Source of the DNA: Candidatus Nomurabacteria bacterium GW2011_GWE2_34_25
Lineage (GTDB): Bacteria; Patescibacteriota; Minisyncoccia; Phycocordibacterales; UBA9973
Assembly (NCBI GenBank): GCA_000990325.1
Contig: LBPS01000008.1
Coordinates: 97-64,096, forward strand
Length of the DNA: 64,000 bases
Direction: 5' to 3'
Below the pieces are notes generated by a model. It was not told the DNA's origin and made no database searches. It was given only the letters and a program-made list of their open reading frames with translations. This document shows positions 1,917-64,000 of this stretch, piece after piece. Position 1 is the stretch's first letter; each line of letters starts with the position of its first letter. The translations under genes and the position numbers were made by a program.

Positions 1917-4900
1917 ATGAAAATAATTGATACAACAAATTTCGACTCAATAACTCTCAAGCTTGCTTCTCCTGAACGTATAAAGGAGTGGTCTTATGGA
2001 GAAGTTACAAAACCAGAAACTATAAATTACAGAACAGGGCGTAGCGAACGCTCTGGACTATTCGACGAGAGAATATTCGGACCAGAAAAAGACTATGAAT
2101 GTTACTGTGGTAAATATCGAAGAATTCGTTATAAGGATATTATCTGTGAAAAATGTGGAGTGGAAGTTACTCGCTCTATAGTTCGTCGTGACCGTATGGG
2201 TCACATTGAGCTTGCAAGTCCTGTCTCACATATCTGGTTTCTACGTGGTGTGCCTTCACGTATGTCTACTTTGCTCAACATTACAGTCTCAGATCTTGAG
2301 AAAGTTATTTATTTTGCTGGATATATTGTTATCAAAGTTTCAGCAGAAGAGAAAGAAACTATCTCAAAGAATTTAGAGAGTGAATTCAAGTCCAAGATTA
2401 AAAGTGCCAACAATGAAGAAGAAAAGGAAAAGCTAAAGGAGCTTCTCTTAAGTACAAAGCGTGAGATAGCCGAGATAGTTCCAGGTAAAGTTTTGAATGA
2501 AATAGCTTATCATCACTTTGGACTCAAATACGGAAGTTGTTTTGAAGCAAGTATTGGAGCTGAAGCTATCTTTACTATTTTCAAGAATTTAGATTTAGAA
2601 AAATTAAAGACCGAGACCTTAGCGATGCTTCCAAAAGCTTCAAGTATAGACAAAGAAAAGCTTGAGAAAAGAATGTCCCTTATCCGTTCAATGCTTCACT
2701 CTGGTATCCGTCCCGAGTGGATGTTCCTGACAGTTATCCCAGTTATACCTCCAGCTTTACGCCCTATGGTGGCTCTAGATGGTGGACGTCATGCAACTTC
2801 AGACTTAAATGATCTTTATCGCCGTGTTATCAACAGAAATAATCGTCTAAAGAAATTAAAAGAAATTGGTGCTCCAGATGTAATCCTCCGAAATGAAAAA
2901 AGAATTCTACAAGAAGCAGTAGATGCCCTTATCGATAATTCTATTGCCAAGCAAAATGATTCTCAGGCTGTCTCTGCTTCACAGAAGCGTGCACTTAAAT
3001 CTTTGTCCGATAACTTGAAGTCCAAGCAAGGTCTCTTCCGTCAGAATTTGCTCGGTAAGCGCGTAGATTACTCTGGGCGTTCTGTTATCGTTGTGGGTCC
3101 TGGACTCAAGCTCAACCAGTGTGGACTTCCTAAGCACATGGCTCTTGAACTTTTCAAACCATTTGTAATTTCTAAAATTCTTGAGACAGAGCTTGCTTTC
3201 AACATTCGTGGAGCCAATCGCTTAATAGAAGAAAGTATTCCCGAAGTTTGGGCAATACTTGAAGAAGTAATTCGTGGTAAGTACGTACTTCTAAACCGTG
3301 CGCCTACGCTTCACAGACTAGGTATTCAAGCTTTCAATCCTATTCTTATCGAAGGTCACGCTATCCAAGTGCACCCTCTAGTCTGTGCCGGATTCAACGC
3401 CGACTTCGATGGAGACCAGATGGCTGTCTACGTACCTCTTTCCGATATGGCTCAAATGGAAGCACGTGAATATATGGCTTCTAACAAGAACTTGCTCAAG
3501 CCTCAAGATGGTTCTCCTATTATTTTACCGAAAATGGATATTGTTCTTGGTTGTTACTGGATGACGAAAACAGTTGATGGTGAAAAGGGTGAGGGAATGT
3601 ACTTTGCAAGTCCCAACCAAGCTATCACAGCTTTCGATCTTGGTATTATTACTTTCCGTGCCAAGATTAAAGTCTTAGGTACAGAAACAGCAAGATACGA
3701 TAAATATGAAAATAAAGTTTTCGAAACAACAGTTGGAAGATTGTTCTTCAACAGTATTTTCCCAAATGATTTCCCTTATTTAAATGAAGAAATAACTATT
3801 AAGAGAATGTCTCTACTTGTCGATGAACTCATTGTTCACTATGGTATAGATGCTACTCCAAAAGTCTTAGATAAAATTAAAGACTTTGGATATCACTATG
3901 CAACTTACTCAGGTGTTACTTGGGGTATTGATAGTGTGACAGTACCAGTTGGTAAAAAAGAAATTGTGAAGAAATTTAGAAAAGAAGAAGAAGTAGTTCG
4001 TGAACAATTCGCAGAAGGTCTCCTCTCAGAAGATGAACAATATCAAAAGGTTATTGAAATATGGGAGCATGCCAAGAAAGAAATAGAAAAGTTAATTCCA
4101 GCAACTCTCGATCCGAACGGTTCCACTTACGATCTTATTACTTCAGGAGCTCGCGGAAGTATGGGTTCCATGGTACAGATGTGTGGTATGAAGGGACTCA
4201 TTGTAAATACTTCAGGAGCCACTCTCGACTTCCCAATTATTCCATCATACATAGAAGGTCTATCACCACTTGAATACTTCATTACAACTCACGGTTCTCG
4301 TAAGGGTGCCGCCGACACAGCTCTAAATACTGCTAAGGCAGGGTACCTTACACGCCGTCTAGTAGATGTCGCTCAGGATGTGGTAGTGACAGAAGAAGAC
4401 TGTGGTACGAAGAATGGAAAGAAAATTGTAGCAATTGGTAATGATTTTGCTAAATACATACATGGACGTGTTTTGCTAGCCGACATAAAAGGGGCTGATG
4501 GTGTTGTCCTATTTAAGAAAGGCACACTCATAATGAAAGAAGATGCAAGACTTCTAGAAAAGGTTGGAGTCAAAGAAGCTTTAGTTCGTACCCCTCTTTC
4601 TTGTGAGACTACTCACGGCATCTGTCGCATTTGTTATGGTCTAGATCTAGGGCGTAACATCATGGTAGAACTTGGACAAGCAGTTGGTATTATCGCCGCT
4701 CAAGCTATCGGTGAGCCTGGAACACAGCTTACTCTTCGTACTTTCCATGCTGGAGGAGTTGCTACTGTCGATATTACGACAGGTCTTCCTCGTGTTGAAG
4801 AAATTTTTGAAAGACGTATTCCAAAGAATCCTGCAATAATTTCTCAGACAGACGGTGAAGTTCTTGAAATTACCGACAATGGGAAAGAGAAGACTATTAA

Positions 4901-7328: not shown

Positions 7329-9098
7329 ATGAGTACAAATAATAATGTTGAGAAAATCAAAGAAAGGCTTTCCATTGTTGATGTTATTTCTTCGTACATG
7401 CAAGTGGAGCAGTCGGGGAAGAATTTCAAAGCGAAGTGTCCATTTCACAACGAGAAGACGCCATCCTTTTTCATATCTCTAGATCGGGGGACTTACTACT
7501 GTTTTGGTTGTGGAGAGAAGGGGGACATATTCTCTTTCATTCAAAAATTCGAAGGAACAGATTTTATGGGAGCACTGAAATTACTTGCTGAAAAAGCAGG
7601 AGTAACTCTTGAGACAAGGTCTAAAGATTCTGACGGTAAAGATAAGGAAAAGAAAGAACTTTATTATGAAATAATGGATGAAGCCACCAAGTTTTTCGAA
7701 AGTAATTTTGATAAAGAGCCAAAGGCACGCGCATATCTTTTGAGTAGAGGTTTAACAGATGCAACTATTAAGAATTTTCGTGTTGGTTTTGCGAAAGATG
7801 AGTGGAGGTCGCTGTCTGACTATCTAACTACAAAAGGTTATAAAATACAAGATTTGGAAATTGTTGGCTTGGTAAAAAAATCTGAGAAGGGTACATATGA
7901 TCGTTTCCGCTCTAGAATAATTTTCCCTATAAGTGATTCAAGTGGTAGAGTCATAGCTTTCTCGGGGCGTATCTTTGGCAAGGATGATGCAACAGAAGCT
8001 AAATATTTAAATAGTCCCGACACCCCACTTTTCAATAAATCCAATGTACTATTTGGTATAGATAAAGCCAAATTAGCTATTAGGAAGAGAGGCTATAGTA
8101 TTGTAGTTGAAGGACAGATGGACTTGATTCTTTCTCATCAAGCAGATTTTCTAAATACAGTAGCTGTTTCAGGTACTGCCTTTACTGATGACGTTGTAGA
8201 TAATGAAGATAAGATAAATAACTTAGGTTTGATACGCAGACTTTCTTCGAACATTATATTTGCTTACGACGGGGACTCTGCCGGTATAAGGGCTGCTAGC
8301 CGTTCAGCTATCATAGCTTTATCACTTGATATGCAAGTAAAAATAGCTAAATTACCAGAGGGGAAAGATCCAGCAGATATTATAAAAGAGAATCCCGATG
8401 AATGGAAAGAAATTATTAAAAATTCCACAGATATTATAACTTTTCACGTAGATAGAATCTGTAAAAATACAAACGACATAAGGCAAAGAGGTAAGCTCGT
8501 GAGGGATATTATTTTTCCATTTTTAGTCGTAATTAAAAGTTCAATAGATAGATCTTCTTATGTTTCTATAATTAATTCTAAAACAGGTATACCCTCAAGC
8601 GCAATTATTGAGGACTTCATAGTTTATGAAAGGAACCATAAGGTAGAGAACAATACAAGTAAAGATAAAGATATTCTCATAAAAAAAGAAGAATTATCAA
8701 GAAGAGATAATTTAGAAAAAAGACTTTTTGGTATAATTTTCTGGCAAGCACAGAATGACTTAGGTATAGTAGTAGAGGATATATATAAATCACTAGAAGA
8801 AAAAATTGGTAAAGATTTATTCCTACAGATAAGAGATACCCATGAGCCATATAAAGATATTCTCGCATCTGAAGCAGAAATGTGGTATGGTAACAGGATA
8901 AAAGACATATCTCGCGATATTAGAGAGATAATGCTTAATTTAGAAGAGGAAATCCTAAATGAACGTAAAATATTTTTACAAAATCAAATAAATGAACAAA
9001 AGGATAAAGGTGAAGATTTTGACCCCGGTCCCATACTTATAGATTATCAACAAACAGTCGAACGTATAGCAAAAATAAAAAATCATAGATCACAATAA
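7329..9098 (+). CDS. dnaG: DNA primase
   Basis: Zinc-ribbon motif [11 protein letters not shown]...[17 protein letters not shown] motifs VVEGQMD and YDGDSAG, and rpoD lies 4 bp downstream (dnaG-rpoD operon). Confidence 0.93.
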
Positions 9099-21767: not shown

Positions 21768-23465
21768 ATGCAAAGTGAAATTAAAATTTGTCAAAACTGT
21801 AAAAATGATTTCACTATAGATCCTGAGGATTTTTTATTTTATGAGAAAATAAAAGTTCCTCCACCAACCTTTTGTCCACATTGTCGGTTTGTACGACGAT
21901 TAATATGGAAAAACGAACGGTCTTTATATAAAAGAAAATGTGATATGTGCCAAGAAAGTATTATTTCAATGTATAATGAAAAAGTAGCTTTTTATGTATA
22001 TTGTTCTTCTTGTTACAAAAGTGATAAATGGGAAGCAGGAGAATATGCGCAAAACTATGATTTTAGTAAAGCATTTTTTACACAATGGAAAGAATTGTTT
22101 AATAAAGTTTCAAGGCAGTCACTATGGCAATTTGGTGATTGTATAGATTCAGAATATGCTAATTTTGTATATTTTTCTAAAAATGTATATTTAAGTAGTT
22201 CTATTATAGACGGGTCCGAAGATGTATATTTTTCAAATAACGTTGATGGATCAAAACAAGTAATAGATTCATTTAATGTATTAAAGAGCGAATTAATTTA
22301 TCAAAATATCAGTGGAAATAAAAATTATAATTGTCAATACTCATATTGGTCAACTGGATGTATAGATTGTAATTTCATACTTGATTGTAATAATTGCCAA
22401 GATTGTTTTGGTTGTGTAAATTTACAAAATAAAAGATATTGTATTTGGAATATTCAATATACAAAAGAACAGTATGAAGAGAAGATGAAAGAATTAAATA
22501 CAGGCAAGCACTCTTTTGTTGAAGAGTTTTCAAAAATATTTTGGGAATTTACATTAGAATTTCCAAGGAAACATGCAAGAATTATTAATTCTATTGATTC
22601 TACTGGTGATGAGCTTAGAAATAATAAAAATACCTCAAGTTCTTTTAATGTTTATGATTCTGAAAATCTTAAATATACATACAGATGTGTTCACGCAAAA
22701 GATTCCATGGATATTTGTCATTCATATGCAGAGCACGCGTATGAGCATGCTTTTGCTGGTGCTGAGAACAGTCAGAACATTAAATTTGTTATTACAGGAG
22801 AAGTTGCTTTAAGCATGGTTGAGTATTTAGATGCCTGTAAATCTTCCTCTAATCTCTTCGGTTGCATAGGTCTCAAAAACAAACAGTATTGTATTTTAAA
22901 TAAGCAATATACAAAAGAAGAATACGAAGAAATGATACCAAAAATTAAACAACATATGGATGAAATGCCGTATATAGATAGTAAGGGCAGGGTATATAAG
23001 TATGGAGAATTCTTTCCTTATGAACTATGTCCATTTGGATACAACGAAGCTGTTATAAATGATCATTTTCCATTAACCAAAGAAGAAACAATAGAAAGGG
23101 GATATCCATACAAAGAAAAGATAGATAACAAATATACAATTACTTTAAAAGCCAAAGATATACCAGATGATATAAAAGATGTAGACGATTCTATACTAAA
23201 TGAAGTTATAGAGTGTGAAGCATCAGGTAAAGCATTTAAAATAACTCCATTTGAACTTCAATTTTACAAACGTATGAATATTCCCATCCCTAGACTTCAT
23301 CCAGATGAAAGATACAAGAAACGCTTAGCTCTGAGGAATCCGATGACTCTATATACTCGCACTTGTATGAATGAAGGTTGCACAAATACATTTGAGACTA
23401 CCTATGCTCCAAATAGGCCAGAGATAGTATATTGTAAAGAATGTTACCAGAGGGAAGTGTATTAG
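21768..23465 (+). CDS. Cys-rich repeat protein with terminal tandem zinc ribbons (paralog 2 of 4)
   Basis: 565 aa. N-terminal CQNCKNDFTI...FYEKIKVPPPTFCPHCR, C-terminal RTCMNEGCTNTFETTYAPNRPEIVYCKECYQREVY, and internal NCNNCQDCFGCVNLQNKRYCIWNIQYTKEQYEE repeats. Confidence 0.8.
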   Translation: MQSEIKICQNCKNDFTIDPEDFLFYEKIKVPPPTFCPHCRFVRRLIWKNERSLYKRKCDMCQESIISMYNEKVAFYVYCSSCYKSDKWEAGEYAQNYDFSKAFFTQWKELFNKVSRQSLWQFGDCIDSEYANFVYFSKNVYLSSSIIDGSEDVYFSNNVDGSKQVIDSFNVLKSELIYQNISGNKNYNCQYSYWSTGCIDCNFILDCNNCQDCFGCVNLQNKRYCIWNIQYTKEQYEEKMKELNTGKHSFVEEFSKIFWEFTLEFPRKHARIINSIDSTGDELRNNKNTSSSFNVYDSENLKYTYRCVHAKDSMDICHSYAEHAYEHAFAGAENSQNIKFVITGEVALSMVEYLDACKSSSNLFGCIGLKNKQYCILNKQYTKEEYEEMIPKIKQHMDEMPYIDSKGRVYKYGEFFPYELCPFGYNEAVINDHFPLTKEETIERGYPYKEKIDNKYTITLKAKDIPDDIKDVDDSILNEVIECEASGKAFKITPFELQFYKRMNIPIPRLHPDERYKKRLALRNPMTLYTRTCMNEGCTNTFETTYAPNRPEIVYCKECYQREVY

Positions 23466-23833: not shown

Positions 23834-25079
23834 ATGAAAGCGATTGATTTTAAAATAGAAAAAAAGTTGGAAGGATTTTTAGGTAGAGCAGGGACTCTGA
23901 CTACACCTCATGGAGTTATAGAGACTCCATCTTTTGTCGTTGTGGGGACGAAGGGGACAGTCAAAGCTATGACTCCCGAACAGCTCAAGGAGATAGGTGT
24001 GCAAGTTACACTTGCCAATACTTACCATCTTTATTTACAACCAGGAAGTGATTTAGTACGTGAGGCAGGAGGCTTACATAAGTTTATGAATTGGCAGGGG
24101 CCCATGATGACAGACTCTGGTGGATTCCAAGTATTTTCTCTTGGTGTGGCTTACGGCAAAGAGCTTTCCAAAGTTGTTTCTGTAAAGGCTTGCAACCATA
24201 GGGAACGACGGAGTTTCTTTCCGATCACACTTAGATGGATCGCTTCATTATATAACTCCAGAGAAGTCTATCGAGATTCAGCACAACTTAGGAGCCGATA
24301 TTATATTTGCTTTTGATGAATGTACCTCGCCGACAGAAAGTGAACGCTATCAAGATGAAGCATTGTCTCGCACTCACTCTTGGGCCAAGAGGAGTTTGGA
24401 GGAGCATAAGAAACGGGAGGAAGCAAAGCAAGAATATGCGAATTCTTCACGCTTTACCCTAGAGGGGCCCTACGCTGATAAGAATTTTCATATTCCTATT
24501 TCGCCTTGGCCCCAGGCTCTCTTTGGCATTGTCCAAGGAGGACGTAGTGAAGAGCTTAGGAAGAAGTCTGCTAAAGTTATAGGAGAAATGGACTTCGATG
24601 GTTTTGGGATTGGTGGATCTTTTGCCAAAGAGGATATGTCGACTGCTGTAAAGTGGGTCAATGAAGTGCTCCCAGAAGACAAACCTCGCCATTTACTAGG
24701 TATCGGTGAACCGGAAGATCTTTTCTCTGGAGTAGAAAACGGGGTTGATCTTTTTGATTGTGTGGCACCCACTCGTATTGCTCGCAACGGAACGATGTTT
24801 ACAAAGAACGGCAAGATAAATATTTTGAATGCTAAGTTTGTAAAAGATTTTAATCCGATAGACGAAGGGTGCAAGTGTAATACTTGTACAAATTATACTC
24901 GTGCATATCTTTCACACCTCTTTCGTGCTAAAGAAATGCTAGGAGCAACTTTGGCTTCTATTCACAATGTCTACTTTATAACCAATCTAGTAAAACAAAT
25001 GCGCGATGCTATACTAAATGATACGTTTCAAGATTTTAAAAATGAATTTTTAAAAAATTATGACAGACAAAGTATTTAA
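23834..25079 (+). pseudogene. tgt: Queuine tRNA-ribosyltransferase interrupted by a +1 frameshift near 24180 (pseudogene or sequence error)
   Basis: Frame 2 encodes the N-terminal TGT part up to [11 protein letters not shown]. After a TAA at 24183, frame 3 continues with [21 protein letters not shown]...DECTSP... and the C-terminal Zn site CKCNTCTNYTRAYLSHL. The two pieces align end to end with canonical Tgt. Confidence 0.85.
24440..24491 (+). repeat. In-frame palindromic insertion element inside tgt (encodes NSSRFTLEGPYADKNFH)
   Basis: gaattcttcacgctttaccctagaggggccctacgctgataagaattttcat is about 80% identical to a segment inside uvrA at 28637-28690. It is absent from canonical Tgt at this position. 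Confidence 0.65.
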
Positions 25080-27273
25080 ATTAAAGAGTGGGTACAAGCC
25101 CGATGGCGACCAGCCAAAGGCCATAAAAGAGCTTCTGGAAGGTCTTAAGAAGGGTTTTGATAAACAGACGCTCCTAGGTGCTACTGGTACAGGGAAGACT
25201 TTCACGATAGCCAATGTTATCGAAGAGTGGGGGAAGCCGACCTTGGTCATAGCCCACAACAAGACTCTCGCTGCTCAGCTGGCTCAAGAATTTAGGGAGT
25301 TTTTCCCTGATGCCGCTGTACACTATTTTGTGTCTTATTATGATTACTATCAGCCAGAAGCATACATGCCAGTGACCGATACTTATATAGAGAAAGATGC
25401 TCAGATAAACAAAGAGATAGATAGGCTTCGCCATGCCACTACGCAGTCACTTCTTACACGCAAGGACGTTATTATTGTGGCTTCTGTTTCTTGTATTTAT
25501 GGTCTTGGAAGTCCAGAAGAATACGAGAAGGTAAATTTGAAACTTGAAATTGGATCCAAGATTGGAAGGACAGAATTAATGCGAAAGTTACTCGGAGTTC
25601 ATTTTGAAAGAACGAACTCAGACCTTACTCCAGGAACTTTCCGTTCTATTGGAGATAGAGTAGAAGTCATGCCTATATCGGAGACTTTTGTATATCAAAT
25701 AGAATTTGTAGGAGGTGCTATTTCTAAAATTTTAAAAGTAGACCCTGTGTCTGCCCATGTTCTGAAAGAAGAGAGTGGTATTTTCCTTTTTCCAGCCAAG
25801 CACTTTATTACCGAGACAGAGAAAGTAAAAGTGGCATTAAAGAATATTAAACTTGAGCTTACACAACAATTAAAAAAGTTTGAGAAGGAAGGCAAGCTTC
25901 TGGAGGCAGAAAGGATAAAGAGAAGAACCAATTATGATTTAGCAATGATCAAGGAAGTTGGATATTGTAGTGGTATCGAGAATTATAGTAGACAGCTTTC
26001 TGGCAAGAAGGAAGGGGAAGCTCCAGATACACTTCTCTCGTATTTCAAGAGTGATTTCTTAACTATTATCGATGAATCTCATGTGACTCTTCCTCAGCTA
26101 GGTGGTATGTATGCAGGCGATGCTTCTCGCAAGAAGACTCTTGTAGACTTCGGCTTCCGTCTGCCTTCTGCCAAGGACAATAGGCCTCTTAAGTATAATG
26201 AATTTGAAGAAAGAATTGGAGATGTGATATATGTATCAGCAACCCCAAGCGAGACAGAGAGGACAACTAGTGCTCAAGTTGTTGAACAGATTATTCGCCC
26301 AACAGGATTGATAGATCCAGAAATATTGGTAAGACCGGTTTCTGCAACAGAGGCTTCAGAATTTTTGAAAAATAATCGCTTATCCCTACCGAATTCTGAC
26401 AGTAGTCAGAATTCGGCGCGCGTCCACACCTACGATTATTTTTCTAAAAATTCTTTCGCCTCTTATCCTGGCCAAATTGAAGACTTTGTAGAAGAAGCAA
26501 ACCGAGTTATTAAAAAGGGTTTCCGTGCTATTGCTACGACTTTGACCAAGAATATGGCGGAGGACCTAACTTTATTTTTGAAAGAAAAGGGATTCAAAGC
26601 AGAGTACTTACATAGTGATATTAAAACCATAGAGAGAATTCAAATACTTTCTTCTTTTAGAAGAGGGGACTTTGATATTCTTATAGGAGTCAATTTACTC
26701 CGCGAAGGATTAGACTTACCCGAGCTAGCCTTGATAGGAATCTTGGATGCAGACAAGGAAGGTTTCCTTCGTTCGGAAACTTCTCTGATTCAGATTATAG
26801 GAAGAGCTGCTCGAAACGTAGAGGGGAGAGTTGTACTTTATGCTGATCGTATGACCAAGGCCCTAGAGAGTGCCATAGGAGAGACAAATAGAAGAAGAGA
26901 TATCCAGATAGCTTACAACAAGAAGCATGGTATTACTCCCCAGACTATTATAAAAAAGATTAATGATATTACCGAAGAGCTCGAGAACAAGCACGAGAAG
27001 GCGGTGAATGCAGAGCTAGACTTAGATGTAGAATTGTTCAAGAAGACTTTTGTAACAAGTAAAAGTAATAAGGGTAAAGGGGAAAGAGAATCTATCAAGA
27101 ATTTACTTCTTTCAGATGAAGATAGGAACAAATCTATTTATGAAAAAATTATAAAGATAAAAGAGAAGGAAATGAATAAAGCGGTGAAGGAACTAGACTT
27201 CGAAACTGCTGCTATATTACGAGATGAGATTATTATTTTGAATGATAAGTTTTTAAATAAAAATACAAAATAA
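25060..27273 (+). CDS. uvrB: Excinuclease ABC subunit B
   Basis: Walker A GATGTGKTF, helicase motifs, and the C-terminal UvrB/UvrC interaction motif ELDFETAAILRDEI. It carries an extra ~40-aa insertion. Confidence 0.95.
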   Translation: MTDKVFKLKSGYKPDGDQPKAIKELLEGLKKGFDKQTLLGATGTGKTFTIANVIEEWGKPTLVIAHNKTLAAQLAQEFREFFPDAAVHYFVSYYDYYQPEAYMPVTDTYIEKDAQINKEIDRLRHATTQSLLTRKDVIIVASVSCIYGLGSPEEYEKVNLKLEIGSKIGRTELMRKLLGVHFERTNSDLTPGTFRSIGDRVEVMPISETFVYQIEFVGGAISKILKVDPVSAHVLKEESGIFLFPAKHFITETEKVKVALKNIKLELTQQLKKFEKEGKLLEAERIKRRTNYDLAMIKEVGYCSGIENYSRQLSGKKEGEAPDTLLSYFKSDFLTIIDESHVTLPQLGGMYAGDASRKKTLVDFGFRLPSAKDNRPLKYNEFEERIGDVIYVSATPSETERTTSAQVVEQIIRPTGLIDPEILVRPVSATEASEFLKNNRLSLPNSDSSQNSARVHTYDYFSKNSFASYPGQIEDFVEEANRVIKKGFRAIATTLTKNMAEDLTLFLKEKGFKAEYLHSDIKTIERIQILSSFRRGDFDILIGVNLLREGLDLPELALIGILDADKEGFLRSETSLIQIIGRAARNVEGRVVLYADRMTKALESAIGETNRRRDIQIAYNKKHGITPQTIIKKINDITEELENKHEKAVNAELDLDVELFKKTFVTSKSNKGKGERESIKNLLLSDEDRNKSIYEKIIKIKEKEMNKAVKELDFETAAILRDEIIILNDKFLNKNTK
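26355..26475 (+). repeat. In-frame ~120-bp insertion in uvrB containing a 28-bp perfect palindrome (ccgaattctgacagtagtcagaattcgg) plus a segment related to the tgt/uvrA elements
   Basis: The perfect palindrome lies at 26389-26416. The downstream tttctaaaaattctttcgcctcttatcctgg resembles aaaaattcttcgcgctttaccctaaaggg in uvrA. The encoded ASEFLKNNRLSLPNSDSSQNSARVHTYDYFSKNSFASYPG is extra relative to canonical UvrB. Confidence 0.55.
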
Positions 27274-27276
27274 AAA

Positions 27277-27310
27277 AGCCACTCCAGTTGTTGGAATGGC
27301 CTTCGTTTTG
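27277..27310 (+). terminator. Hairpin after uvrB (gccactccag-ttgt-tggaatggc) followed by T-rich tract
   Basis: A 9-10 bp stem with one mismatch, followed by ttcgtttt. Confidence 0.5.
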
Positions 27311-27364
27311 ATTAGACATGTAATGGCGTAACCTGTCTCTTTATTGAGTGAAAAGAATTTTTGT

Positions 27365-27438
27365 AGCCGAAAACGAGGACTCGAACCCGCGACCCCAACC
27401 TTGTCCATGTTGTGCTCTACCAACTGAGCTATTTCGGC
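27365..27438 (-). tRNA. tRNA gene with a non-canonical anticodon and T arm; isotype uncertain (best reading anticodon GAC, Val)
   Basis: Acceptor GCCGAAA/TTTCGGC. The D arm is identical to that of tRNA-Thr at 16252. Anticodon region CAACA-TGGACAA-GGTTG with G at position 33. The T arm pairs only with wobbles and an 8-nt loop. Confidence 0.6.
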
Positions 27439-27478
27439 ATATATTTATTTCAATTCCATATTACTTATTTTGAGATCT

Positions 27479-27507
27479 TTGTCAAGTCTAAGGTTTTGTG
27501 TTATCAT
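27479..27507 (+). promoter_or_regulatory. Candidate sigma-70 promoter TTGTCA-17bp-TATCAT upstream of uvrA
   Basis: Hexamers with a 17-bp spacer about 70 bp upstream of the uvrA start. A weak hairpin lies between promoter and start. Confidence 0.35.
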
Positions 27508-27577
27508 GTTAGTAACTAAATATCAGTATACACCCCCTAAGAACTTTGGGAGGTGTCGTTATGTGTTTAAGTAATTT

Positions 27578-30268
27578 ATGAAAAAAGATACAACAGACAA
27601 AATAATAATAAAAGGGGCTAGAACTCACAATTTGAAGAATATTAGTGTTGAGATGCCGAGGAATAAAATGATAGTTATTACTGGTATGTCTGGCTCTGGT
27701 AAGTCTTCTTTGGCATTCGATACTATATTTGCTGAAGGGCAAAGGCGCTATGTGGAGAGTCTCTCTGCTTATGCTCGCCAATTCTTGAACCAAATGCCGA
27801 AGCCAGATGTCGATGAGATTACTGGTCTTTCTCCAGCTATTTCTATCGACCAGAAGTCTAGGTCGAACAATCCTCGTTCAACAGTTGCAACCATCACAGA
27901 GATATATGACTATCTTCGTGTTCTTTATGCACGTATAGGGCATCCTCATTGCCCCGAGTGTGGCAATGAGATTAAGAAACTTTCCAATGATGAAATACTT
28001 CATTTTGCAATAGATAAGATAAAGAATTTTCAAAAGGATAATAAAAACCCCGTAAAAAAGCAAAGCTTTAACGGGGCGAGGAAAGTATTAGGTGTCGAGT
28101 GGAACGAAGCTCCTGTCTCAATTCTTTCTCCGGTAGTTAGAGGTAGGAAAGGTGAGTACTACCAACTTCTTTATGATTTACTCAACAAAGGTTTTGCCGA
28201 GGTTCGTCTAGATGGACAGATCAAGAAACTAAGAGAGAGGATTGATATTACGAAGACAAAAAAGCACGACATAGAAGTTATAGTAGACACATTCCAAATA
28301 CATGAATTCAAAGACAATGAAAAGGATTCATACTCACGTCTAGCAGAGAGTGTCGAGAGAGCCTTACTTGAATCCGATGGCCTTGTAATTATTAAAATAG
28401 ATGAAGACGAGTACCTTATGTCTTCCAAGTTTTCTTGTGCCAACGATGGTTTCGCTTTTCCTGAGATAGAGCCTAGGCTTTTCTCTTTCAATTCCCCATA
28501 TGGAGCTTGTCCTACTTGTAATGGACTTGGTACGAAGTATTTCGGTGGCACAGAACCTTGTGATGATTGTAAGGGTTTGCGATTACGACCTGAAGCACTT
28601 CATGTATATCTAGGTAAATCCGCTCCGCAGAAGCATAAAAATTCTTCGCGCTTTACCCTAAAGGGCTCCGACGCGGATAAGAATTTTCATGTTTCTGCTC
28701 CGCTAAATATTGTAGACGTTACTAAACTTTCCATTTCAGATGTTGCTGACTTTTTTATTGAACTACAGTTGAACGATCAAGAAAAAGAAATTTCAAAAGT
28801 AGTTATCAAAGAGATCGAGGCACGAATTCAGTTTTTACTAAACGTCGGGCTTGATTATTTATCTCTCGACCGAAAAGCCAATACTCTCTCTGGAGGAGAA
28901 GCGCAGAGAATACGTTTGGCTTCCCAGCTTGGTTCACGACTTGTCGGAGCTTTGTATGTGCTCGATGAACCGACGATAGGTTTACATCAGAGAGACAACG
29001 ACAAGCTTATTAAAACCCTTGAGAATCTTCGTGACTTAGGGAACACTATCATTGTCGTAGAGCACGATGAAGATACTATATATGCATCGGATTATATTGT
29101 AGATATAGGCCCGAAGGCTGGAGTACATGGAGGGCAAGTAATAGTGTCGGATTATTTACAAGATTTACTTGATGCACCAAAGAACGTTTCCAATTCTAGA
29201 ACTTTAGCATATCTTAGAAATGAAGCTAGAATAGAAGTTCCGGAGAAAAGAAGAAATAGCGATAAGGGTAGTATCAAAATAATTGGAGGTAAAATTTTCA
29301 ATATTGATAATCTCAATGCTGAGGTTCCTCTAGGTAAGCTTGTCACTATTACGGGAGTATCAGGAAGTGGGAAGAGTTCTTTCATGTATGAGATTATCCA
29401 CAAGAATCTTCAGGCAAGATATGAAAGGAAGTTTAGAACAGCAAAGATTTTCAACTGCGCATCTTTCACTGGGACGGAGTATGCTTCTCGCGTCGTTCTT
29501 ATCGATCAGTCTCCTATAGGCCGTACTCCTCGCTCCAACTTAGCTACTTACACAGGAGCATTTACTCATATCCGTGATATGTTCGCACTTAGTGAAGAAG
29601 CAAGACTGAAAGGTTGGAAAGCCAATAGATTCTCTTTCAATGTGAAGGGTGGACGCTGTGAGGCTTGTGAAGGGAATGGAGAGGTAGCGGTAGAGATGCA
29701 TTTCTTGCCGACTGTTTACGTCACTTGTGATGTTTGTAATGGTAAAAGATTTGACAAAGAGACTTTGACTGTGAAATATAAAAAGAAAAATATTTATGAA
29801 GTTCTTCAAATGACAGTTGAAGAAGCGATAACTTTCTGGGAAGATATTCCCGCTGTGTACGATCGCATGAAGACGCTTATGGAAGTCGGTCTTGGCTATG
29901 TGAAGCTTGGCCAGTCTGCTACAACTCTTTCGGGTGGAGAAGCACAACGCGTAAAAATTTCTTCAGAATTATTTAGACCGTATGAAGAGAAGACTATTTA
30001 TCTACTAGATGAGCCGACAGTTGGACTTCATTATGATGACGTAGCAAAGTTGCTTGAAGTTTTGAATAGACTTGTGAATAAGGGCAACAGCGTAGTAGTT
30101 ATAGAGCACAATATGGATATTATAAAATGTTCAGATCACATTATAGATATCGGCCCCGAAGGTGGTCTCGGTGGTGGCAAGATTGTAGCAAAGGGAACTC
30201 CTGAAGAAGTTGCTAATAATAAAAATTCACACACTGGTAAATATCTTAAGAAAGTTTTGAAAAAATAG
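27578..30268 (+). CDS. uvrA: Excinuclease ABC subunit A
   Basis: Two ABC ATPase modules (GMSGSGKSSL, GVSGSGKSS, LSGGEAQR x2) and Zn-finger CxxC pairs. Confidence 0.95.
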   Translation: MKKDTTDKIIIKGARTHNLKNISVEMPRNKMIVITGMSGSGKSSLAFDTIFAEGQRRYVESLSAYARQFLNQMPKPDVDEITGLSPAISIDQKSRSNNPRSTVATITEIYDYLRVLYARIGHPHCPECGNEIKKLSNDEILHFAIDKIKNFQKDNKNPVKKQSFNGARKVLGVEWNEAPVSILSPVVRGRKGEYYQLLYDLLNKGFAEVRLDGQIKKLRERIDITKTKKHDIEVIVDTFQIHEFKDNEKDSYSRLAESVERALLESDGLVIIKIDEDEYLMSSKFSCANDGFAFPEIEPRLFSFNSPYGACPTCNGLGTKYFGGTEPCDDCKGLRLRPEALHVYLGKSAPQKHKNSSRFTLKGSDADKNFHVSAPLNIVDVTKLSISDVADFFIELQLNDQEKEISKVVIKEIEARIQFLLNVGLDYLSLDRKANTLSGGEAQRIRLASQLGSRLVGALYVLDEPTIGLHQRDNDKLIKTLENLRDLGNTIIVVEHDEDTIYASDYIVDIGPKAGVHGGQVIVSDYLQDLLDAPKNVSNSRTLAYLRNEARIEVPEKRRNSDKGSIKIIGGKIFNIDNLNAEVPLGKLVTITGVSGSGKSSFMYEIIHKNLQARYERKFRTAKIFNCASFTGTEYASRVVLIDQSPIGRTPRSNLATYTGAFTHIRDMFALSEEARLKGWKANRFSFNVKGGRCEACEGNGEVAVEMHFLPTVYVTCDVCNGKRFDKETLTVKYKKKNIYEVLQMTVEEAITFWEDIPAVYDRMKTLMEVGLGYVKLGQSATTLSGGEAQRVKISSELFRPYEEKTIYLLDEPTVGLHYDDVAKLLEVLNRLVNKGNSVVVIEHNMDIIKCSDHIIDIGPEGGLGGGKIVAKGTPEEVANNKNSHTGKYLKKVLKK
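28622..28703 (+). repeat. In-frame ~80-bp near-perfect palindromic insertion inside uvrA (encodes APQKHKNSSRFTLKGSDADKNFHVS)
   Basis: ccgcagaagcataaaaattcttcgcg...cgcggataagaattttcatgtttctgctccgc has arms of ~25 bp that are reverse complements. Its core matches the tgt element at 24440. The region is extra relative to canonical UvrA. Confidence 0.7.
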
Positions 30269-30345
30269 CAGGGAAACCTGTCCCGTAGGAAGTAATCTTT
30301 CCTTCGGGATATTTGAAAAAGGTTTTGAGGAGGAAATAAAAAAAG

Positions 30346-30372
30346 AGCATCACTTTGTTGTGATGCTTCTTT
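30346..30372. terminator. Bidirectional terminator hairpin agcatcac-tttgt-tgtgatgct flanked by A-run and T-run
   Basis: A perfect 9-bp stem between convergent uvrA (+) and the ORF at 30384 (-). Confidence 0.75.
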
Positions 30373-30383
30373 TGATTTTTAAA

Positions 30384-30701
30384 TTAGTTTAGCCAAAGTC
30401 TGTAGGTTGATGTAATTGTTTCAATAAGGTACTCGTCCTCGTTAATTTTTAAGATCGATACAACTGGACTTGTTATTCCAATACCTCTTTTTTGTCTTAG
30501 TGGGTTGGGATTGTCAATTTCTCTGGTTTTTCTGATTGGCATCCCGGGTCTTATTGGAACGTATAAATCTAACTCAATGATTTTACCAACCTTTGTTTTT
30601 GATTTTTTACCTGGTTTAATGCCGAGCTTTTCAATTTTTGCCTTTGATCCAACCTCTCCTAGTTTTTCAAGGTAGCTACCTGAATTTTCATAACTCTCCA
30701 T
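30384..30701 (-). CDS. Hypothetical protein
   Basis: A 105-aa ORF with a K-rich segment. It sits between terminators and has a plausible promoter. No recognised motif. Confidence 0.4.
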   Translation of the reverse strand: MESYENSGSYLEKLGEVGSKAKIEKLGIKPGKKSKTKVGKIIELDLYVPIRPGMPIRKTREIDNPNPLRQKRGIGITSPVVSILKINEDEYLIETITSTYRLWLN

Positions 30702-30765
30702 AATTCCTCCGTTTTTAACAATTTAACATTTGTACAATATCTATTTTTAATCTAATATAATATAC

Positions 30766-31947
30766 GTGAATAGTCAACAGCTTAAGAAAATAGGGGTACC
30801 AGACAAGCCAGGGGTTTATTTTTTCCGTAAGGACAAAACTATACTTTATATAGGTAAGGCTACTTCGTTGCGGGATAGGGTAAAGAGCTATTTCTCAAAG
30901 GATATCATCGTTACCAGAGGGTCACATATATTAGATATGACGGTAAAAGCGGATAGGGTAGAATGGCAGGAGACGGATAGCGTTCTTGAATCTCTTATTT
31001 TAGAGGCAAATCTTATAAAGAAATTTAAGCCGAAATACAATACTAAAGAGAAGGATAACAAGAGCTTTAATTATGTTTGTATAACCAAAGAAAAGTTACC
31101 CAAAATTTTAATAGTTCGTGGTAGAGGAATGGATAAAAAGTTATATAGCAAAGTCTACGGTCCATTCCCAAATGGTCAGCAACTTAAAGAGGCAATGAAG
31201 ATTATTCGCAGAATTTTCCCATATTTTGACAATGATTCGTTAAAAAGGAATAATAGGGAATTTTACAAACAAATAGGACTAATTCCAGAAAAAGAATTTC
31301 AAGAAAATATAAAGAATATTAAGCTCTTATTTGAAGGAAAGAAGAAAAGTATTGTTATAAATCTTAAAGCTAAAATGGCAGCATTTTCAAAATCAAAAGA
31401 TTTTGAAAATGCTGCCAGAATTCGAGACCAAATATATGCCTTAAATCATATAAATGATATTTCCTTAATAAAAGAGGAAATATATGGAAGTCCGACTTCC
31501 ATATTTCGTATTGAAGCTTATGACGTGGCTCATATGGGAGGCAAGAATATGGTTGGAGTTATGACTGTTGTTGAGAATGGTGAAGTCAATAAAAGTGAAT
31601 ATAAGAAGTTTATTATCAGAACTCAAAGTGATGCCAATGACACAGGCGCACTCGAGGAAGTTCTTTCTCGTAGATTGCGTCATACAGAGTGGGGTTTGCC
31701 TAGTCTAATTGTTGTCGATGGTAGTACCGCCCAAGTAAATGTAGCTAAGAGAGTATTAAGTAGGTACCAGTTTGAGATACCAATAGTCGGAGTGGTGAAA
31801 GATGACAAACATAGACCAAAAGTGATAATAGGTAATGAAGAAATAATTAAAATATACAAAAAGCAGATCCTTCTTGCCAACAGTGAGTCACACAGATTTG
31901 CTATAACTTTCCATAAACAAAAGAGAAATAAAAGTTTTCTAAAATAG
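30766..31947 (+). CDS. uvrC: Excinuclease ABC subunit C, compact form (GIY-YIG nuclease + UVR domain + RNase H-like domain, lacking the C-terminal HhH)
   Basis: PGVYFFRKDKTILYIGKATSLRDRVKSYF (GIY-YIG), YGPFPNG, FENAARIRDQIYAL (UVR), and a C-terminal RNase H-like endonuclease region (EAYDVAHMGG). Confidence 0.85.
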   Translation: MNSQQLKKIGVPDKPGVYFFRKDKTILYIGKATSLRDRVKSYFSKDIIVTRGSHILDMTVKADRVEWQETDSVLESLILEANLIKKFKPKYNTKEKDNKSFNYVCITKEKLPKILIVRGRGMDKKLYSKVYGPFPNGQQLKEAMKIIRRIFPYFDNDSLKRNNREFYKQIGLIPEKEFQENIKNIKLLFEGKKKSIVINLKAKMAAFSKSKDFENAARIRDQIYALNHINDISLIKEEIYGSPTSIFRIEAYDVAHMGGKNMVGVMTVVENGEVNKSEYKKFIIRTQSDANDTGALEEVLSRRLRHTEWGLPSLIVVDGSTAQVNVAKRVLSRYQFEIPIVGVVKDDKHRPKVIIGNEEIIKIYKKQILLANSESHRFAITFHKQKRNKSFLK

Positions 31948-31970
31948 ATTATTGTTGATATAATATATTT

Positions 31971-32969
31971 ATGATAAAAGTTGGGGTTATACGTGGGGGG
32001 ACAAGTGGTGAGTACGAAGTATCTCTTAAGACAGGGAGCAATGTACTTTCTCATTTGAGGGGAGATAAGTTGAGTCAAACATATAAATCTATCGACATTC
32101 TTATCGATAAGGATGGAACTTGGCATATAAGTGGCAAGCCTGTATCGACAGCAGATGTATTCCATTCTGTGGATGTTATCTTCAATGCTTTGCATGGCGA
32201 CTTCGGAGAAGATGGCAAAGTTCAGCAAATGCTTGACCAGTGGAAGATTCCATATACTGGCTCAGGAGCTTTCGCTTCTGCCTTAGGATATAACAAAGTT
32301 TTAGCCAAAGAACAATTTAGTAGACTTGGAGTGAAGACACCCAATCATCTTGTCGTGTCTCAGTATCAAGAAGAGGATGGTGATTTTGAAACTTATGCTG
32401 TAAATGTTGCAAAGCAAATTCACGACAAGTTAGTACCTCCTTGGATAGTGAAGCCTCTTTCTGGTGGTTCTTCTGTTGGTATGAGAATGTGTAGGACTTA
32501 TCCAGAATTAATATCTGCTTTTATGGAAGGGGTAAACATGGAGACCGATGTTCTAGTAGAAGAACTTATAGAAGGGAAAGAAGCGACAGTAGGGGTTATA
32601 AATAATTTTCGTGATAAGGCTGTTTATGTGCTTCCTCCGATTGAGATAAGGATTCCTAAAAGCAAAGATTTTTTTGATTTTGAAGCAAAGTATACTGGAG
32701 TGTCAGAGGAAATTTGCCCTGGCAATTTCTCTCGTAGTGAAAAAGAGGAGCTCGAAAGACTAGCAGGAATTATTCATACAGGACTCAATCTCGATCATTA
32801 TTCTAGAAGTGATTTCATTGTACATCCGAAGAAGGGTATTTATGCGCTTGAAGTGAATACTTTACCAGGGCTAACCAACGAATCACTTGTTCCCAAAATG
32901 CTCAACGCTGTTGGGGCGACTGTCCCTGAATTTATTGATCACATTATTAAACTTGCATTAAAAAGGTAA
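31971..32969 (+). CDS. ddl: D-alanine--D-alanine ligase (copy 1)
   Basis: N-terminal VGVIRGGTSGEYEVSLKTG and ATP-grasp motifs (EELIEGKEATVGVI, LEVNTLPGLT). Confidence 0.85.
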   Translation: MIKVGVIRGGTSGEYEVSLKTGSNVLSHLRGDKLSQTYKSIDILIDKDGTWHISGKPVSTADVFHSVDVIFNALHGDFGEDGKVQQMLDQWKIPYTGSGAFASALGYNKVLAKEQFSRLGVKTPNHLVVSQYQEEDGDFETYAVNVAKQIHDKLVPPWIVKPLSGGSSVGMRMCRTYPELISAFMEGVNMETDVLVEELIEGKEATVGVINNFRDKAVYVLPPIEIRIPKSKDFFDFEAKYTGVSEEICPGNFSRSEKEELERLAGIIHTGLNLDHYSRSDFIVHPKKGIYALEVNTLPGLTNESLVPKMLNAVGATVPEFIDHIIKLALKR

Positions 32970-32970
32970 T

Positions 32971-33798
32971 ATGAAAATTTCTATTTTAGGTTATGGAACT
33001 TTTGGACAAGCTATTGCAACTCGTTTGATAATAAACGAACATGAAATTTTAATAAATGAAGTAAAAGGGAGCGACATGATACTTGTGGCAACTCCTTCGT
33101 ATAGAGTGAAAGAGGCTCTCTTAGAGCATAAAGATTTTATTATAAATCAGAAAATAATAATTTGTTCTAAAGGTTTTAATAAAGATGGGGATCTTATATC
33201 AACTGTCTTAGAAAAGGAATTCCCTCATAATTCAATTTATTTCTTATACGGTCCAACTTTAGCCGAAGGATTAATAAATGGAGATCTTTCAGCCATGGTC
33301 TTAGCTGGTGGAGCTGGTAAAGAAGAAATAAAGAAACAGATTGAATCACAGAATTTGAAAATTGAGTTAAGTAACGATGTAGTTGGAGTTCAAATAGGTG
33401 CTGCCATGAAAAATGTGGTAACTATTTTTGTGGGGATAGCTGAAGGAGCATCGTATGGCCAGAATACTCAAGCCTATATTTTTACTAAAGGATTACAAGA
33501 AATCCAGAAGTTGGGGGTTTCCTTGGGAGCAGAACCCAATACTTTTATGGGGTTAACATGTTCAGGGGACTTGTCTTTACGCTCTAGGAATCGTCTACTT
33601 GGGATTGAGATTGGCAAAGGGAGAAAGATAGAGGATATTTTAGCTAAGAAAAAATATATGCTGGAAGGATTGGCCACAATTAAAAATCACAAAAATATTA
33701 GTAGTAAACTCGGAGTAGAGTTACCGTTTGTTGATATTTTATTTTCGATAATTTTTGAAGGTGCCTCTATTGAGAAAGGGATAAGAAAGATTATATAG
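32971..33798 (+). CDS. gpsA: NAD(P)H-dependent glycerol-3-phosphate dehydrogenase (compact)
   Basis: Rossmann N-terminus ISILGYGTFGQAIA and the GpsA signature GAAMKNVVTIFVGIAEG...FMGLTCSGDLSLRSRNRLLGIEIGKG. Confidence 0.8.
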   Translation: MKISILGYGTFGQAIATRLIINEHEILINEVKGSDMILVATPSYRVKEALLEHKDFIINQKIIICSKGFNKDGDLISTVLEKEFPHNSIYFLYGPTLAEGLINGDLSAMVLAGGAGKEEIKKQIESQNLKIELSNDVVGVQIGAAMKNVVTIFVGIAEGASYGQNTQAYIFTKGLQEIQKLGVSLGAEPNTFMGLTCSGDLSLRSRNRLLGIEIGKGRKIEDILAKKKYMLEGLATIKNHKNISSKLGVELPFVDILFSIIFEGASIEKGIRKII

Positions 33799-34363
33799 TT
33801 TCTGTATTTTCTAATTTGTTTTCTTTTCGAAATAAATCTATCACAAAGAATGTGATCTTAATTCCGTTACCAGATAGATTAAAGAGTATTGCCACAGTGA
33901 AAAGTGACAAAGCCAGACTATTACTCAAAAAAGAAACAGCAATGGCGACAATAGCAGAACCAACAGGGAAGAGAATATGCATGTTAGCATGTTCATTTTC
34001 TTTTTTGGTGAAAGGCATATTTTCTATTGTCCCAGATTTTATCACATAGTTACGCATTTTAAACAGTGTAAGCCCAATGAAAATAATATTTAAAGCAAAG
34101 AAAATAATAGCAGTTTCAGAATTTACATATTGTCCCAAGAAACGAGAAGAGAAAGGTACAAGAGCAACAAAGAAAAGAAAAATTCCATTTAAATTTGAAA
34201 ACTTGGTATCAATATTTTTAGCAAGGACTGAAGCTATGAGGTGATGCGATCTCCAGTAAGTGAAAAGTAAAGAAAAACTAAGTAAATAGCTTAAGAAGAG
34301 GGGTGCCATTTCTACAAGTGTATTTAAGAGATGTTGTTCTGTGACTAATCCTGTATATGCCAT
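33791..34363 (-). CDS. Hypothetical integral membrane protein (about 5 TM helices)
   Basis: Hydrophobic segments throughout. No diagnostic motif recognised. Confidence 0.4.
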   Translation of the reverse strand: MAYTGLVTEQHLLNTLVEMAPLFLSYLLSFSLLFTYWRSHHLIASVLAKNIDTKFSNLNGIFLFFVALVPFSSRFLGQYVNSETAIIFFALNIIFIGLTLFKMRNYVIKSGTIENMPFTKKENEHANMHILFPVGSAIVAIAVSFLSNSLALSLFTVAILFNLSGNGIKITFFVIDLFRKENKLENTETI

Positions 34364-34421
34364 CGGAAAGTTGATCTAATCTTGATTGTTTCATATTTTT
34401 TATTATACCATATGAATTATT

Positions 34422-34956
34422 TTATTTAAATATCTCATCTACAAGAGTTAGAACCCCTTTTCTTGTTTTATTCGAGAAGGGGATTATAAGGTGGTCGCCA
34501 ACCACTTTTTTAATTTCTGCCATTTTTTTATGATAGTCGGATTGCTTTAGTTTATCTATCTTATTAGCCACGATTATGAAGTCTTTATGATGATTTCTAA
34601 GCTCGTTTAGCATGAGTATATCTTTGTCTGTCATGCCGACACCAGCATCGATAATCATCACAACTTTCTTTTGAGTATATATAGAGTTAAAAAGATATGA
34701 ATCTATAAGTTCTCCTATTTTCTCACGACCCAAGCCTGAAGCACGAGCGAAGCCGTATCCAGGCAAGTCTACCAAGTAGAAGGCATTATTTATCAGGAAT
34801 ATATTTATCTCTTGAGTTCTTCCTGGGAAGGAACTAGTACGGGCTTGATTTACCAACGTTCGAGCGCCCTATAAAGGCTATCTGGGGTATACCATCGGCT
34901 AGTATCTCATCATCTCCGACGATACCCTTCATGAATTTTGTAGTTGTTATTAACAT
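34422..34956 (-). pseudogene. engB: Ribosome-biogenesis GTPase EngB/YsxC with an internal deletion and frameshift between the G1 motif and switch region
   Basis: An upstream frame encodes MLITTTKFMKGIVGDDEILADGIPQIAFIGRSNVGKSS, then hits a stop. The main ORF resumes at ARTSSFPGRTQEINIFL...LVDLPGYGFA...NKIDKL. The ~10 residues between GKSS and ARTS are missing, and the frame changes. Confidence 0.75.
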
Positions 34957-35085
34957 ATTCACATATTAACAGATAAATGGTATTTGAGCTAAGTCGTGGT
35001 ATAATTTAATAGGTAGTTAATTGACATAAATATAAAAGGATAATTTAAAGCAGAAGTATTTTATTAATAATTTTTCATAAAATAT

Positions 35086-37129: not shown

Positions 37130-38623
37130 ATGGCACTAAATAAACCAAACAAAATCCAGATTATTAAGTATGCTCCACCACCACCAGATCTTCCAACTTT
37201 AGGTAGGGTAGATCCGAGTGATGTGACCTTTATCGGCCGTACGAATTATGTAGCTTCTTTAGAAGAAAAGAAGTTCGTTTTCGGATTCAAGCGTATTGAT
37301 CGTCGCCGTCATTTATACATTATTGGAAAGTCTGGCGTTGGTAAGTCAAAGCTTCAAGAATTGATGATTCGTCAAGATATAGCTTACGGACATGGTGTCT
37401 GTATTATTGATCCTCACGGAGAGCTTATAGAAGACATCTTGAATTTTATTCCAGAGGAGCGTATTGAAGATGTCTGTATTATTGATCCAGGAGATATAGA
37501 GTTCCCATCTTCATTTAATCCACTTGCAAATATTGATCCAACGTTCAAGCATCAACTAACCCAAGGATTGATCGAAGTTCTCCGTAAGCAATTCGGTGCC
37601 AACTGGACTCCACGTTTGGAGCACGTTTTCCGTTTTACAGTCCTAGCTCTTCTCGATTATCCGTTTGCAACAATGCGTGGGATGATTAGTATGCTTACTG
37701 ACAGAAATTATCGTCAGAAAGTAGTTGAATATATCGAAGACGACATGGTCAAACGCTTCTGGGCAATAGAATTCGCGGACTGGTCTGAGAAGTTCGATAC
37801 GGATGCCATCATCCCTTTGGTGAACAAGCTTGGGCAATTTCTTTCTGACCCAATGCTTCGAAATATTTTCGGACAAAAAGAAAACAAAATAGACCTCGAA
37901 GAAATAATGAACGGACAAAAGATTCTCTTAATCAATCTTTCCAAAGGTAAGATTGGGGAAGAGAATTCATCATTCTTCGGAGCCATGTTCCTAACGAAGA
38001 TTAAGCAAGCGGGTATGGCTCGTGCCAAGCTTGAGCCGAAAGATCGTGCGGACTTTTACTTATATGTCGATGAGTTCCAGAACATTGTTACAGATACTTT
38101 TGAAAACATTCTTTCCGAAGCTCGTAAGTACGGATTGAACCTTATTGTTGCCCACCAGTACGTCGCTCAGCTTTTACCTAAAGTTCAGCAAGCAGTTTTA
38201 GGAAATGTGGGATCTATTATTACCTTCCGTGTGGGAGGAGATGATGCGACGAAGCTCAAGCCAGAGTTTGCTCCAGTTTTCGACGTGAAAGATATGATCA
38301 ACTTAGGAGTGGGGGAATTCTATGTCAAAATGACGATAGATGGAGAGAGTTATGATCCATTTTCTGGAGAAACTTTACAAGTACTCCCCGCTACTCATCC
38401 GTCTTATAGACAAAGAATCATAGAAGCTTCTCGTCGTAAGTACTCCATACCAGCAGGTGATGCACAGAGGCTCATTGCCGAAGAAGAAGCTACTATCATC
38501 CGCAGCGCCCAAGAGAAAGCTGCTATTACAGGAAATAAAAAAGAAGAAAAAGACGAAGACGCCAATGACAATAAAAAAGAAGAAATAAAGAAAGAAGAAA
38601 AAGGAGGGGAACCATTAATATAA
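37130..38623 (+). CDS. Soluble TraD/TrwB/VirD4 (T4SS coupling protein)-like P-loop ATPase, paralog 1
   Basis: Walker A HLYIIGKSGVGKSKL, Walker B-like FYLYVDEFQNIVTD, the RKYGLNLIVAHQYVAQL motif, and no TM helices. It is paralogous to 42952-45225 and has a charged KE-rich C-terminus. Confidence 0.75.
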   Translation: MALNKPNKIQIIKYAPPPPDLPTLGRVDPSDVTFIGRTNYVASLEEKKFVFGFKRIDRRRHLYIIGKSGVGKSKLQELMIRQDIAYGHGVCIIDPHGELIEDILNFIPEERIEDVCIIDPGDIEFPSSFNPLANIDPTFKHQLTQGLIEVLRKQFGANWTPRLEHVFRFTVLALLDYPFATMRGMISMLTDRNYRQKVVEYIEDDMVKRFWAIEFADWSEKFDTDAIIPLVNKLGQFLSDPMLRNIFGQKENKIDLEEIMNGQKILLINLSKGKIGEENSSFFGAMFLTKIKQAGMARAKLEPKDRADFYLYVDEFQNIVTDTFENILSEARKYGLNLIVAHQYVAQLLPKVQQAVLGNVGSIITFRVGGDDATKLKPEFAPVFDVKDMINLGVGEFYVKMTIDGESYDPFSGETLQVLPATHPSYRQRIIEASRRKYSIPAGDAQRLIAEEEATIIRSAQEKAAITGNKKEEKDEDANDNKKEEIKKEEKGGEPLI

Positions 38624-62666: not shown

Positions 62667-64000
62667 ATGAAAAATTACGATCATAGAAAAATAGAAAAAA
62701 AATGGCAAGGCGCATGGGAGAAGGGTAAAATTTACGAAGCCAAAACTGGTATAAAAGGAAAGACCTTTTATGGACTCATAGAATTCCCATATCCATCAGG
62801 AGCTGGTCTTCATGTGGGGCATATTCGTAGTAATACAGCTATGGATATTATCACTCGCAAGCGTATGCCATTAAGATGGGGATAGATCCTGCCAAGGTTA
62901 CCAAGACTAATACCGATATCTTTAGAAAGCAGTTGAAGTCTGTAGGTTTTGGATTTGATTGGTCTCGAGAGATAGACACTACAGATCCAGCATATGTAAA
63001 ATGGACTCAGTGGATATTCTTGCAAATGTACAAGAAAGGTCTTGCTTATAAAGCACGTACTACTATAAACTGGTGTACATCATGTAAGATAGGTCTTGCA
63101 AATGAAGAAGTAGTGGGGGGAGAGTGTGAACGTTGTGGAGGTAAGGTTGTCAAAAGAGAAAAAGAGCAATGGATGCTTGCTATCACTAAATATGCAGATA
63201 GGCTAGACAAAGATTTAGATAAAGTAAATTATTTAGAGAAAATAAAAATTCAGCAGAGAAATTGGATTGGCAAAAGTGAGGGAAGTGAAATTGAATTTAG
63301 CTTTTGTCCATGTGCCATAGAAAATATTCCAAACTTGAAAAAAATTAAAGTATTTACAACCCGTGCTGATACTATTTTTGGTGCTACTTATGTCGTACTT
63401 GCTCCAGAACATGAATTAATAAATGATATAAAATCAAGAATTACAAATTGGAAAGAAGTAGAAACTTATATTAAACAAGTGAAAGATAAGCCAGATATGG
63501 AGAGAACTGCTGAGGATAAAGTAAAGACAGGGGTAGAATTAAAGGGAGTTAAGGCTCTTAATCCTGCTACTAATGAAGAGATACCTATTTGGATTGCCGA
63601 CTATGTTCTATCGACTTATGGGACAGGGGCAATAATGGCGGTACCACAACATGATGAAAGAGACAGAGATTTTGCCACTAAATTTAACTTACCAATAATA
63701 GATAAACCACTAGTAGACGCAAAAGAAATTACAGATAAGGTTCATGGTAAAATTGTCACCAAATACAAACTTCGTGATTGGGTTTTCTCAAGACAAAGAT
63801 ACTGGGGAGAGCCAATTCCTATAATACATTGTGATAAATGTGGATATGTTCCAGTGCCAGAGAAAGACCTTCCTGTGGTATTACCGAAAGTTAAATCATA
63901 TACACCGACCGACAATGGTGAGTCACCTCTGGCTATTATTTCAAAATGGGTCAATACAACTTGTCCTAAATGTAAAGGTAAAGCAAAGCGTGAGACAGAT
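62667..64000 (+). pseudogene. leuS: Leucyl-tRNA synthetase 5' region with an internal deletion and frameshift near 62860 (gene continues beyond the window)
   Basis: Frame 1 reads ...FPYPSGAGLHVGHIRSNTAMDIITRKRM, then hits a stop. LeuS then continues in another frame (YAIKMGIDPAKVTKTNTDIFRKQLKSVGFGFDWSREIDTTDPAYVKWTQWIFLQMYKKGLAY...). The ~19 residues expected between (GYNVLFPMGWDAFGLP) are absent. Confidence 0.8.

Follow-up and report, generated by a model that had tools for sequence, protein, structure and literature searches.

Metagenome assemblers, IDBA-UD especially, are documented to make local errors that damage protein-coding genes, and genes of this origin enter public databases as incomplete or incorrect entries (Chen et al. 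2020, PMC7111523). The errors described in that study (Genome Res; IDBA-UD, CLC, and others) resemble the lesions reported here in several ways: the consensus is wrong or missing over a short stretch where the assembler is uncertain, the affected genomes are those of groundwater CPR bacteria, and the errors are detectable against reads or against other assemblies. They differ in that our diagnosis comes from comparison with independent assemblies rather than from read support, and in that a clean loss of 32-67 nt with a fixed left and a variable right breakpoint is not an explicitly listed type in Chen et al. (2020, PMC7111523). Genuine gene interruptions can also look similar. Pseudogenes of reductive evolution, for example those of obligate symbionts, are likewise conserved genes broken by frame-changing deletions, but they are reproducible across assemblies and come with substitutions, whereas the lesions described here are assembly-specific and their surroundings are identical to intact genomes. 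Frameshifting of the prfB +1 type and translational bypass of the T4 gene 60 type share with our locus an apparent frame change and a stop codon near the break. In contrast to these systems, the interruption seen here is unconserved in relatives, and the bases for conserved residues are missing.

We analyzed a stretch of DNA of 64,000 nucleotides (the window, in all that follows), in which four genes are split at four joins, designated J1 to J4 (Table 1). We consider it about 94% probable, on the basis of sequence comparison, that these four lesions are technical artefacts of short-read metagenome assembly, namely mis-joins at strain-variation boundaries. For the organism, a groundwater CPR bacterium resembling Candidatus Nomurabacteria, we predict that tgt, the TMEM175-like gene, engB, and leuS are all intact. 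By the same comparison, the lesions would be neither a biological feature nor novel, and would represent a standard local assembly error of a CPR MAG.

Table 1. Split genes and joins in the window (coordinates are window positions)
Feature	Position	Strand	State in the window	Ambiguity at the join	Method
tgt (queuine tRNA-ribosyltransferase)	23834..25079	+	two frames, 53-nt block lost		
TMEM175-family membrane protein gene	33791..34394	-	split, 50-nt block lost		
engB (YihA/YsxC GTPase)	34422..34962	-	split, 32-nt block lost		
leuS	62667..64000 (runs past window end)	+	split, 67-nt block lost		
J1	24184..24186		53 nt absent (CTGATCC...GGTACCA)	base 24185 (A) assignable to either side	blastn and sequence display
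J2	34354..34356		50 nt absent	base 34355 ambiguous	
J3	34841..34844		32 nt absent	bases 34842-34843 ambiguous	
J4	62863..62865		67 nt absent	base 62864 ambiguous	

The window was compared by blastn with loci of the same groundwater population, which were fetched via exact-sequence look-up of neighbouring proteins. The fetched contigs came from JGI metagenomes (3300025000, 3300025009, 3300025010, 3300025154, and 3300001242), ENA megahit assemblies, ANAN16-1 scaffolds, Logan per-run assemblies, and NCBI MAGs (DMBE01, DNEV01, DPKP01, LBPQ01, LBQT01, and LBPY01). All 64,000 bases were covered at 100% identity by a tiling path of independent contigs (JGI 3300025000 and 3300025154, GCA_003446925.1, GCA_003487725.1, ERZ909587, and Logan SRR6487543 and SRR6488015), with the exception of four blocks that are absent from the window. 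At each site, the missing block (53, 50, 32, and 67 nt for J1 to J4, respectively) is carried by at least five independent contigs whose flanks are 100% identical to the window. Outside the four joins, comparison of the 64 kb with the tiling path gave zero mismatches, zero small indels, and no further discontinuity, and the affected genes themselves had zero mismatches to the intact copies. Restoration of the blocks rendered tgt, the TMEM175-family gene, engB, and leuS each uninterrupted. The intact proteins next to the lesions were each found on 11-24 contigs, and the Logan per-run assemblies hold the intact sequence. The nearest named genome, LBRL01000001.1 (the GTDB representative, Candidatus Nomurabacteria bacterium GW2011_GWD2_36_14), is ≈89-92% identical in this region and has an uninterrupted tgt gene. 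Rfam and tRNA scans of the window returned five ordinary tRNAs and nothing else.

As stated in the original prediction, tgt occupies two frames in the window. Translation from the start at 23834 gives Tgt sequence up to the break at ≈24185, beyond which this frame no longer matches and closes with a stop at 24314-24316; the remainder of the gene, with its end at 25079, uses the next frame and follows a TAA at 24183-24185. Pfam TGT profile positions 3-90 are matched in the first piece and positions 93-356 in the second. The gene had been thought to lack only about 1 nt, as after a single-base indel, and this part of the prediction was wrong: compared to 100%-identical copies, the loss is a block of 53 nt (17 codons plus 2 nt) that encodes TDPSLLIPERSTAEDGVP. 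The split Tgt seems complete because the lost TDPSLLIPERSTAEDGVP, a lineage-specific insert, falls outside the Pfam profile. The restored protein has 432 aa and matches profile positions 3-356, and the gene is intact in five of the fetched loci (L001, L002, L008, L009, and L026).

Two side observations concern this end of the window. Tgt of this lineage, at 432 aa compared to the 357-position Pfam model, has inserts at window positions 24170-24240 and 24390-24520; the first is the segment of 18 aa missing at J1, and the second is a longer charged segment, EEHKKREEAKQEYANSSRFTLEGPYADKNFHIPISPW, as judged by eye from the translation. Directly upstream of tgt, at window positions 21768-23465, is a gene for a cysteine-rich protein of 565 aa in which CxxC motifs recur and for which no precomputed Pfam family is on record.

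The other three genes are restored in the same way. The restored TMEM175-like protein has 217 aa and matches Pfam TMEM175 at positions 1-88, of which the window fragment matches positions 28-88 only. In engB, the break lies between GRSNVGKSS and ARTSSFPGRTQ, and the missing block (10 codons plus 2 nt) encodes LINVITNSKA, right after the G1 motif (P-loop) GRSNVGKSS. Restored EngB has 188 aa with GRSNVGKSSLINVITNSKAS and matches Pfam MMR_HSR1 at positions 1-113, compared to a C-terminal fragment in the window that begins at profile position 23. In leuS, the frame is lost after ...DIITRKR, and the protein continues from IKMGIDPAK in a different frame; the missing block (22 codons plus 1 nt) encodes a 22-aa LeuS segment. 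Restored LeuS, of 782 aa, regains a conserved 14-15-aa segment and is intact in L019, L020, L046, and L048. The disruption of engB and leuS had thus been correctly recognized, and the losses of 10-19 codons that had been assigned to them hold for engB, whereas the loss in leuS is slightly larger. Only three lesions had been counted in the 64 kb; there are four, and the one missed is the 50-nt loss at 34355 in the TMEM175-family gene.

The four joins all lie within ≈70 nt of contig ends of other assemblies (at least five). At J1, LBPQ01000010.1 ends at window position 24184, and contigs of JGI 3300001242, JGI 3300025009, and ERZ27254731 end between 6 nt before and 41 nt after the breakpoint. 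Contigs of ERZ27254733, JGI 3300025000, JGI 3300001242, GCA_003446925.1, and ERZ28564079 start at most ≈60 nt from J3, and LBPQ01000008.1 (38,726 nt) ends, by arithmetic, at window position 62864, which is J4. The piece that extends from J1 to J2/J3 is a stand-alone contig of 10.2-10.9 kb in five assemblies.

Sibling deposits of one accession series (LBPQ01 and LBQT01) have the same left breakpoints as the window and different deletion sizes. LBPQ01000008.1 loses 55 nt at J2 (50 nt in the window) and 86 nt at J3 (32 nt in the window); both losses are inside the deposited contig and carry no Ns, and the contig keeps the tgt block, so that its tgt gene is intact. LBQT01000006.1 (L022/L050) shows an in-frame loss of 27 nt at J4, compared to 67 nt in the window. 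If one pipeline is run several times on related samples, a fixed left end and right ends that vary are to be expected. The deletion alleles are confined to this one accession series and are absent from the megahit, JGI, Logan, ANAN16, and UBA assemblies of the population.

The joins also coincide with strain variation. By blastn, a second haplotype (ANAN16-1 scaffold_429; L003, L011) is 100% identical to the window before J1, 97.7% identical from J1 to J2, 92.6% identical from J2 to J3 (34355-34843), and 99.96% identical after J3, and every join is a boundary where a second strain haplotype begins or ceases to differ. Relative to the block start, the first SNP is at +46 for J1 and at +68 for J4, the latter 1 nt past the block, and the last upstream SNP is at -100 for J2 and -101 for J3. 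In a de Bruijn graph built with k of ≈100, a path specific to one variant extends ≈100 nt beyond that variant. No upstream SNP lies at k-mer distance from the left breakpoint of J1 or J4. Slippage at flanking direct repeats (microhomology) was rejected as a cause of the losses, as the ambiguity per join is only 1-2 nt.

How the artefacts may have arisen can be sketched as follows. The population holds at least two closely related strains, and where the strain sequences start or stop differing, the assembly graph branches and contigs end. The pieces flanking the four branch points were then most probably joined directly, with the 32-67 intervening bases dropped, presumably by a scaffolder, by a gap-closing, curation, or error-correction step, or through the abutting of contigs. 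Loss of 32-67 bases would change the frame and lead to falsely split genes. A simple de Bruijn model counts against this explanation, in that overlap or duplication is expected at bubble ends, not loss. From the k of ≈100 and the report of Chen et al. (2020, PMC7111523), we infer a link to a particular assembler. End-to-end concatenation of deposited contigs is possible at J1 and J4, both of which are end points of sibling contigs. By contrast, J2 and J3 are probably internal mis-joins and not contig concatenations, because they are only 488 nt apart and equivalent collapses occur inside LBPQ01000008.1.

We regard it as very unlikely that the 32-67 nt deletions are real, whether as a genotype, in a decaying lineage, or in a defective subpopulation, in which case the four genes would be pseudogenes. 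The given sequence does contain the frame disruptions, and the deletions that sibling deposits carry at the same left breakpoints could be read as a deletion hot spot. Yet four deletions that destroy the frame, two of which hit normally essential genes, would have to coexist with zero substitutions compared to intact genomes over ≈64 kb; moreover, the alleles occur in one accession series only, and other assemblies have contig ends at the same breakpoints. Neither the junction sequences nor the truncated products were found in the collections searched. The tgt junction, searched as 40-43-mers, had no match in GTDB representative genomes, and the tgt and leuS junctions, searched likewise, had none in 241 million JGI metagenome records. 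The leuS junction was absent from 45 of the fetched loci, and no fetched locus aligned across any of the four joins of the window. In a collection of 153 billion gene positions, the lesion-specific products were not on record (the 160-aa N-fragment and 297-aa C-part of Tgt, the 190-aa TMEM175 fragment, and the 72-aa N-fragment of LeuS). About as unlikely are real low-frequency deletion alleles in the groundwater population that one assembly pipeline happened to capture. Such alleles could have been left behind by aborted recombination where strain-variable blocks end, and would imply that tgt, engB, and leuS are broken in some Nomurabacteria cells or in extracellular DNA.

The artefact reading agrees with the original prediction in so far as an assembly or consensus error had been proposed; the low-coverage or long-read origin named for it does not stand, since the rest of the 64 kb is without mismatches or small indels. 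Single-base or homopolymer indels of such an assembly would account for the net frame change of +1 in tgt and for a Pfam profile that is nearly continuous over the break (90 to 93), but the alignments refute them by placing a clean 53-nt block there. Each lesion spans tens of bases at a strain-variation boundary, and a noisy consensus is incompatible with 64 kb that hold no other indel or mismatch, which leaves single-base errors scarcely credible. Programmed recoding, by which +1 frameshifting or translational bypass would yield full-length products from the split genes, has in its favour that several conserved genes are hit in one window and that the tgt and engB breaks coincide with a stop codon or are closely followed by one. 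However, the genes are uninterrupted in other assemblies of the population, in the second haplotype, and in LBRL01000001.1 (89-92% identical). Moreover, the DNA for the conserved LeuS segment and for LINVITNSKA of EngB is absent from the window, so a ribosome could not restore them, and the probability of recoding is practically negligible. A degenerating lineage and programmed recoding, both offered earlier as alternatives to an assembly error, are contradicted by intact copies with 100%-identical flanks in many independent assemblies.

Apparent frameshifts and pseudogenes in CPR MAGs should be compared with sibling assemblies before genome decay or recoding is inferred. Block losses also yield plausible but wrong database proteins, such as LeuS of LBQT01000006.1, in which the 27-nt loss removes RMEGYNVLY (leuS codons 67-75); frameshift checks, and most automatic checks, would miss this case. 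An example from another pipeline and another site is found in rpoC, which is intact at window positions 4718-4778. In DPKP01000039.1 (GCA_003542455.1; L032, positions 9068-9069), 61 nt of this stretch are replaced by 2 nt, which splits RpoC into pieces of 937 and 269 aa, and a Logan contig starts at window position 4745. We conclude that the rpoC lesion of DPKP01000039.1 is an artefact of the same kind.

A strain-variable block of ≈10.7 kb (24185-34843) is bounded by J1 and J3 and contains the 3' part of tgt, uvrB, uvrA, uvrC, ddl, gpsA, the TMEM175-like gene, and engB. Its divergence from the co-occurring second haplotype is 2.3%, and 7.4% over engB. The block has the appearance of an island in the population that is recombined or strain-variable, and, with its edges marked by the joins, it is a real and ordinary population feature.

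Elsewhere in the window (37130-38623 and 42952-46626) are two homologues of VirD4/TraG-like coupling proteins (TrwB_AAD_bind and TraG-D_C) and a protein with an LTD domain; these assignments are taken from precomputed Pfam matches on identical proteins of other contigs. Finally, a perfect 42-nt palindrome, AAACCTCTACAAACTCTGCCATGGCAGAGTTTGTAGAGGTTT, is located at window positions 57557-57598, inside the miaA ORF (57183-58271, - strand), and is identical in all independent assemblies.
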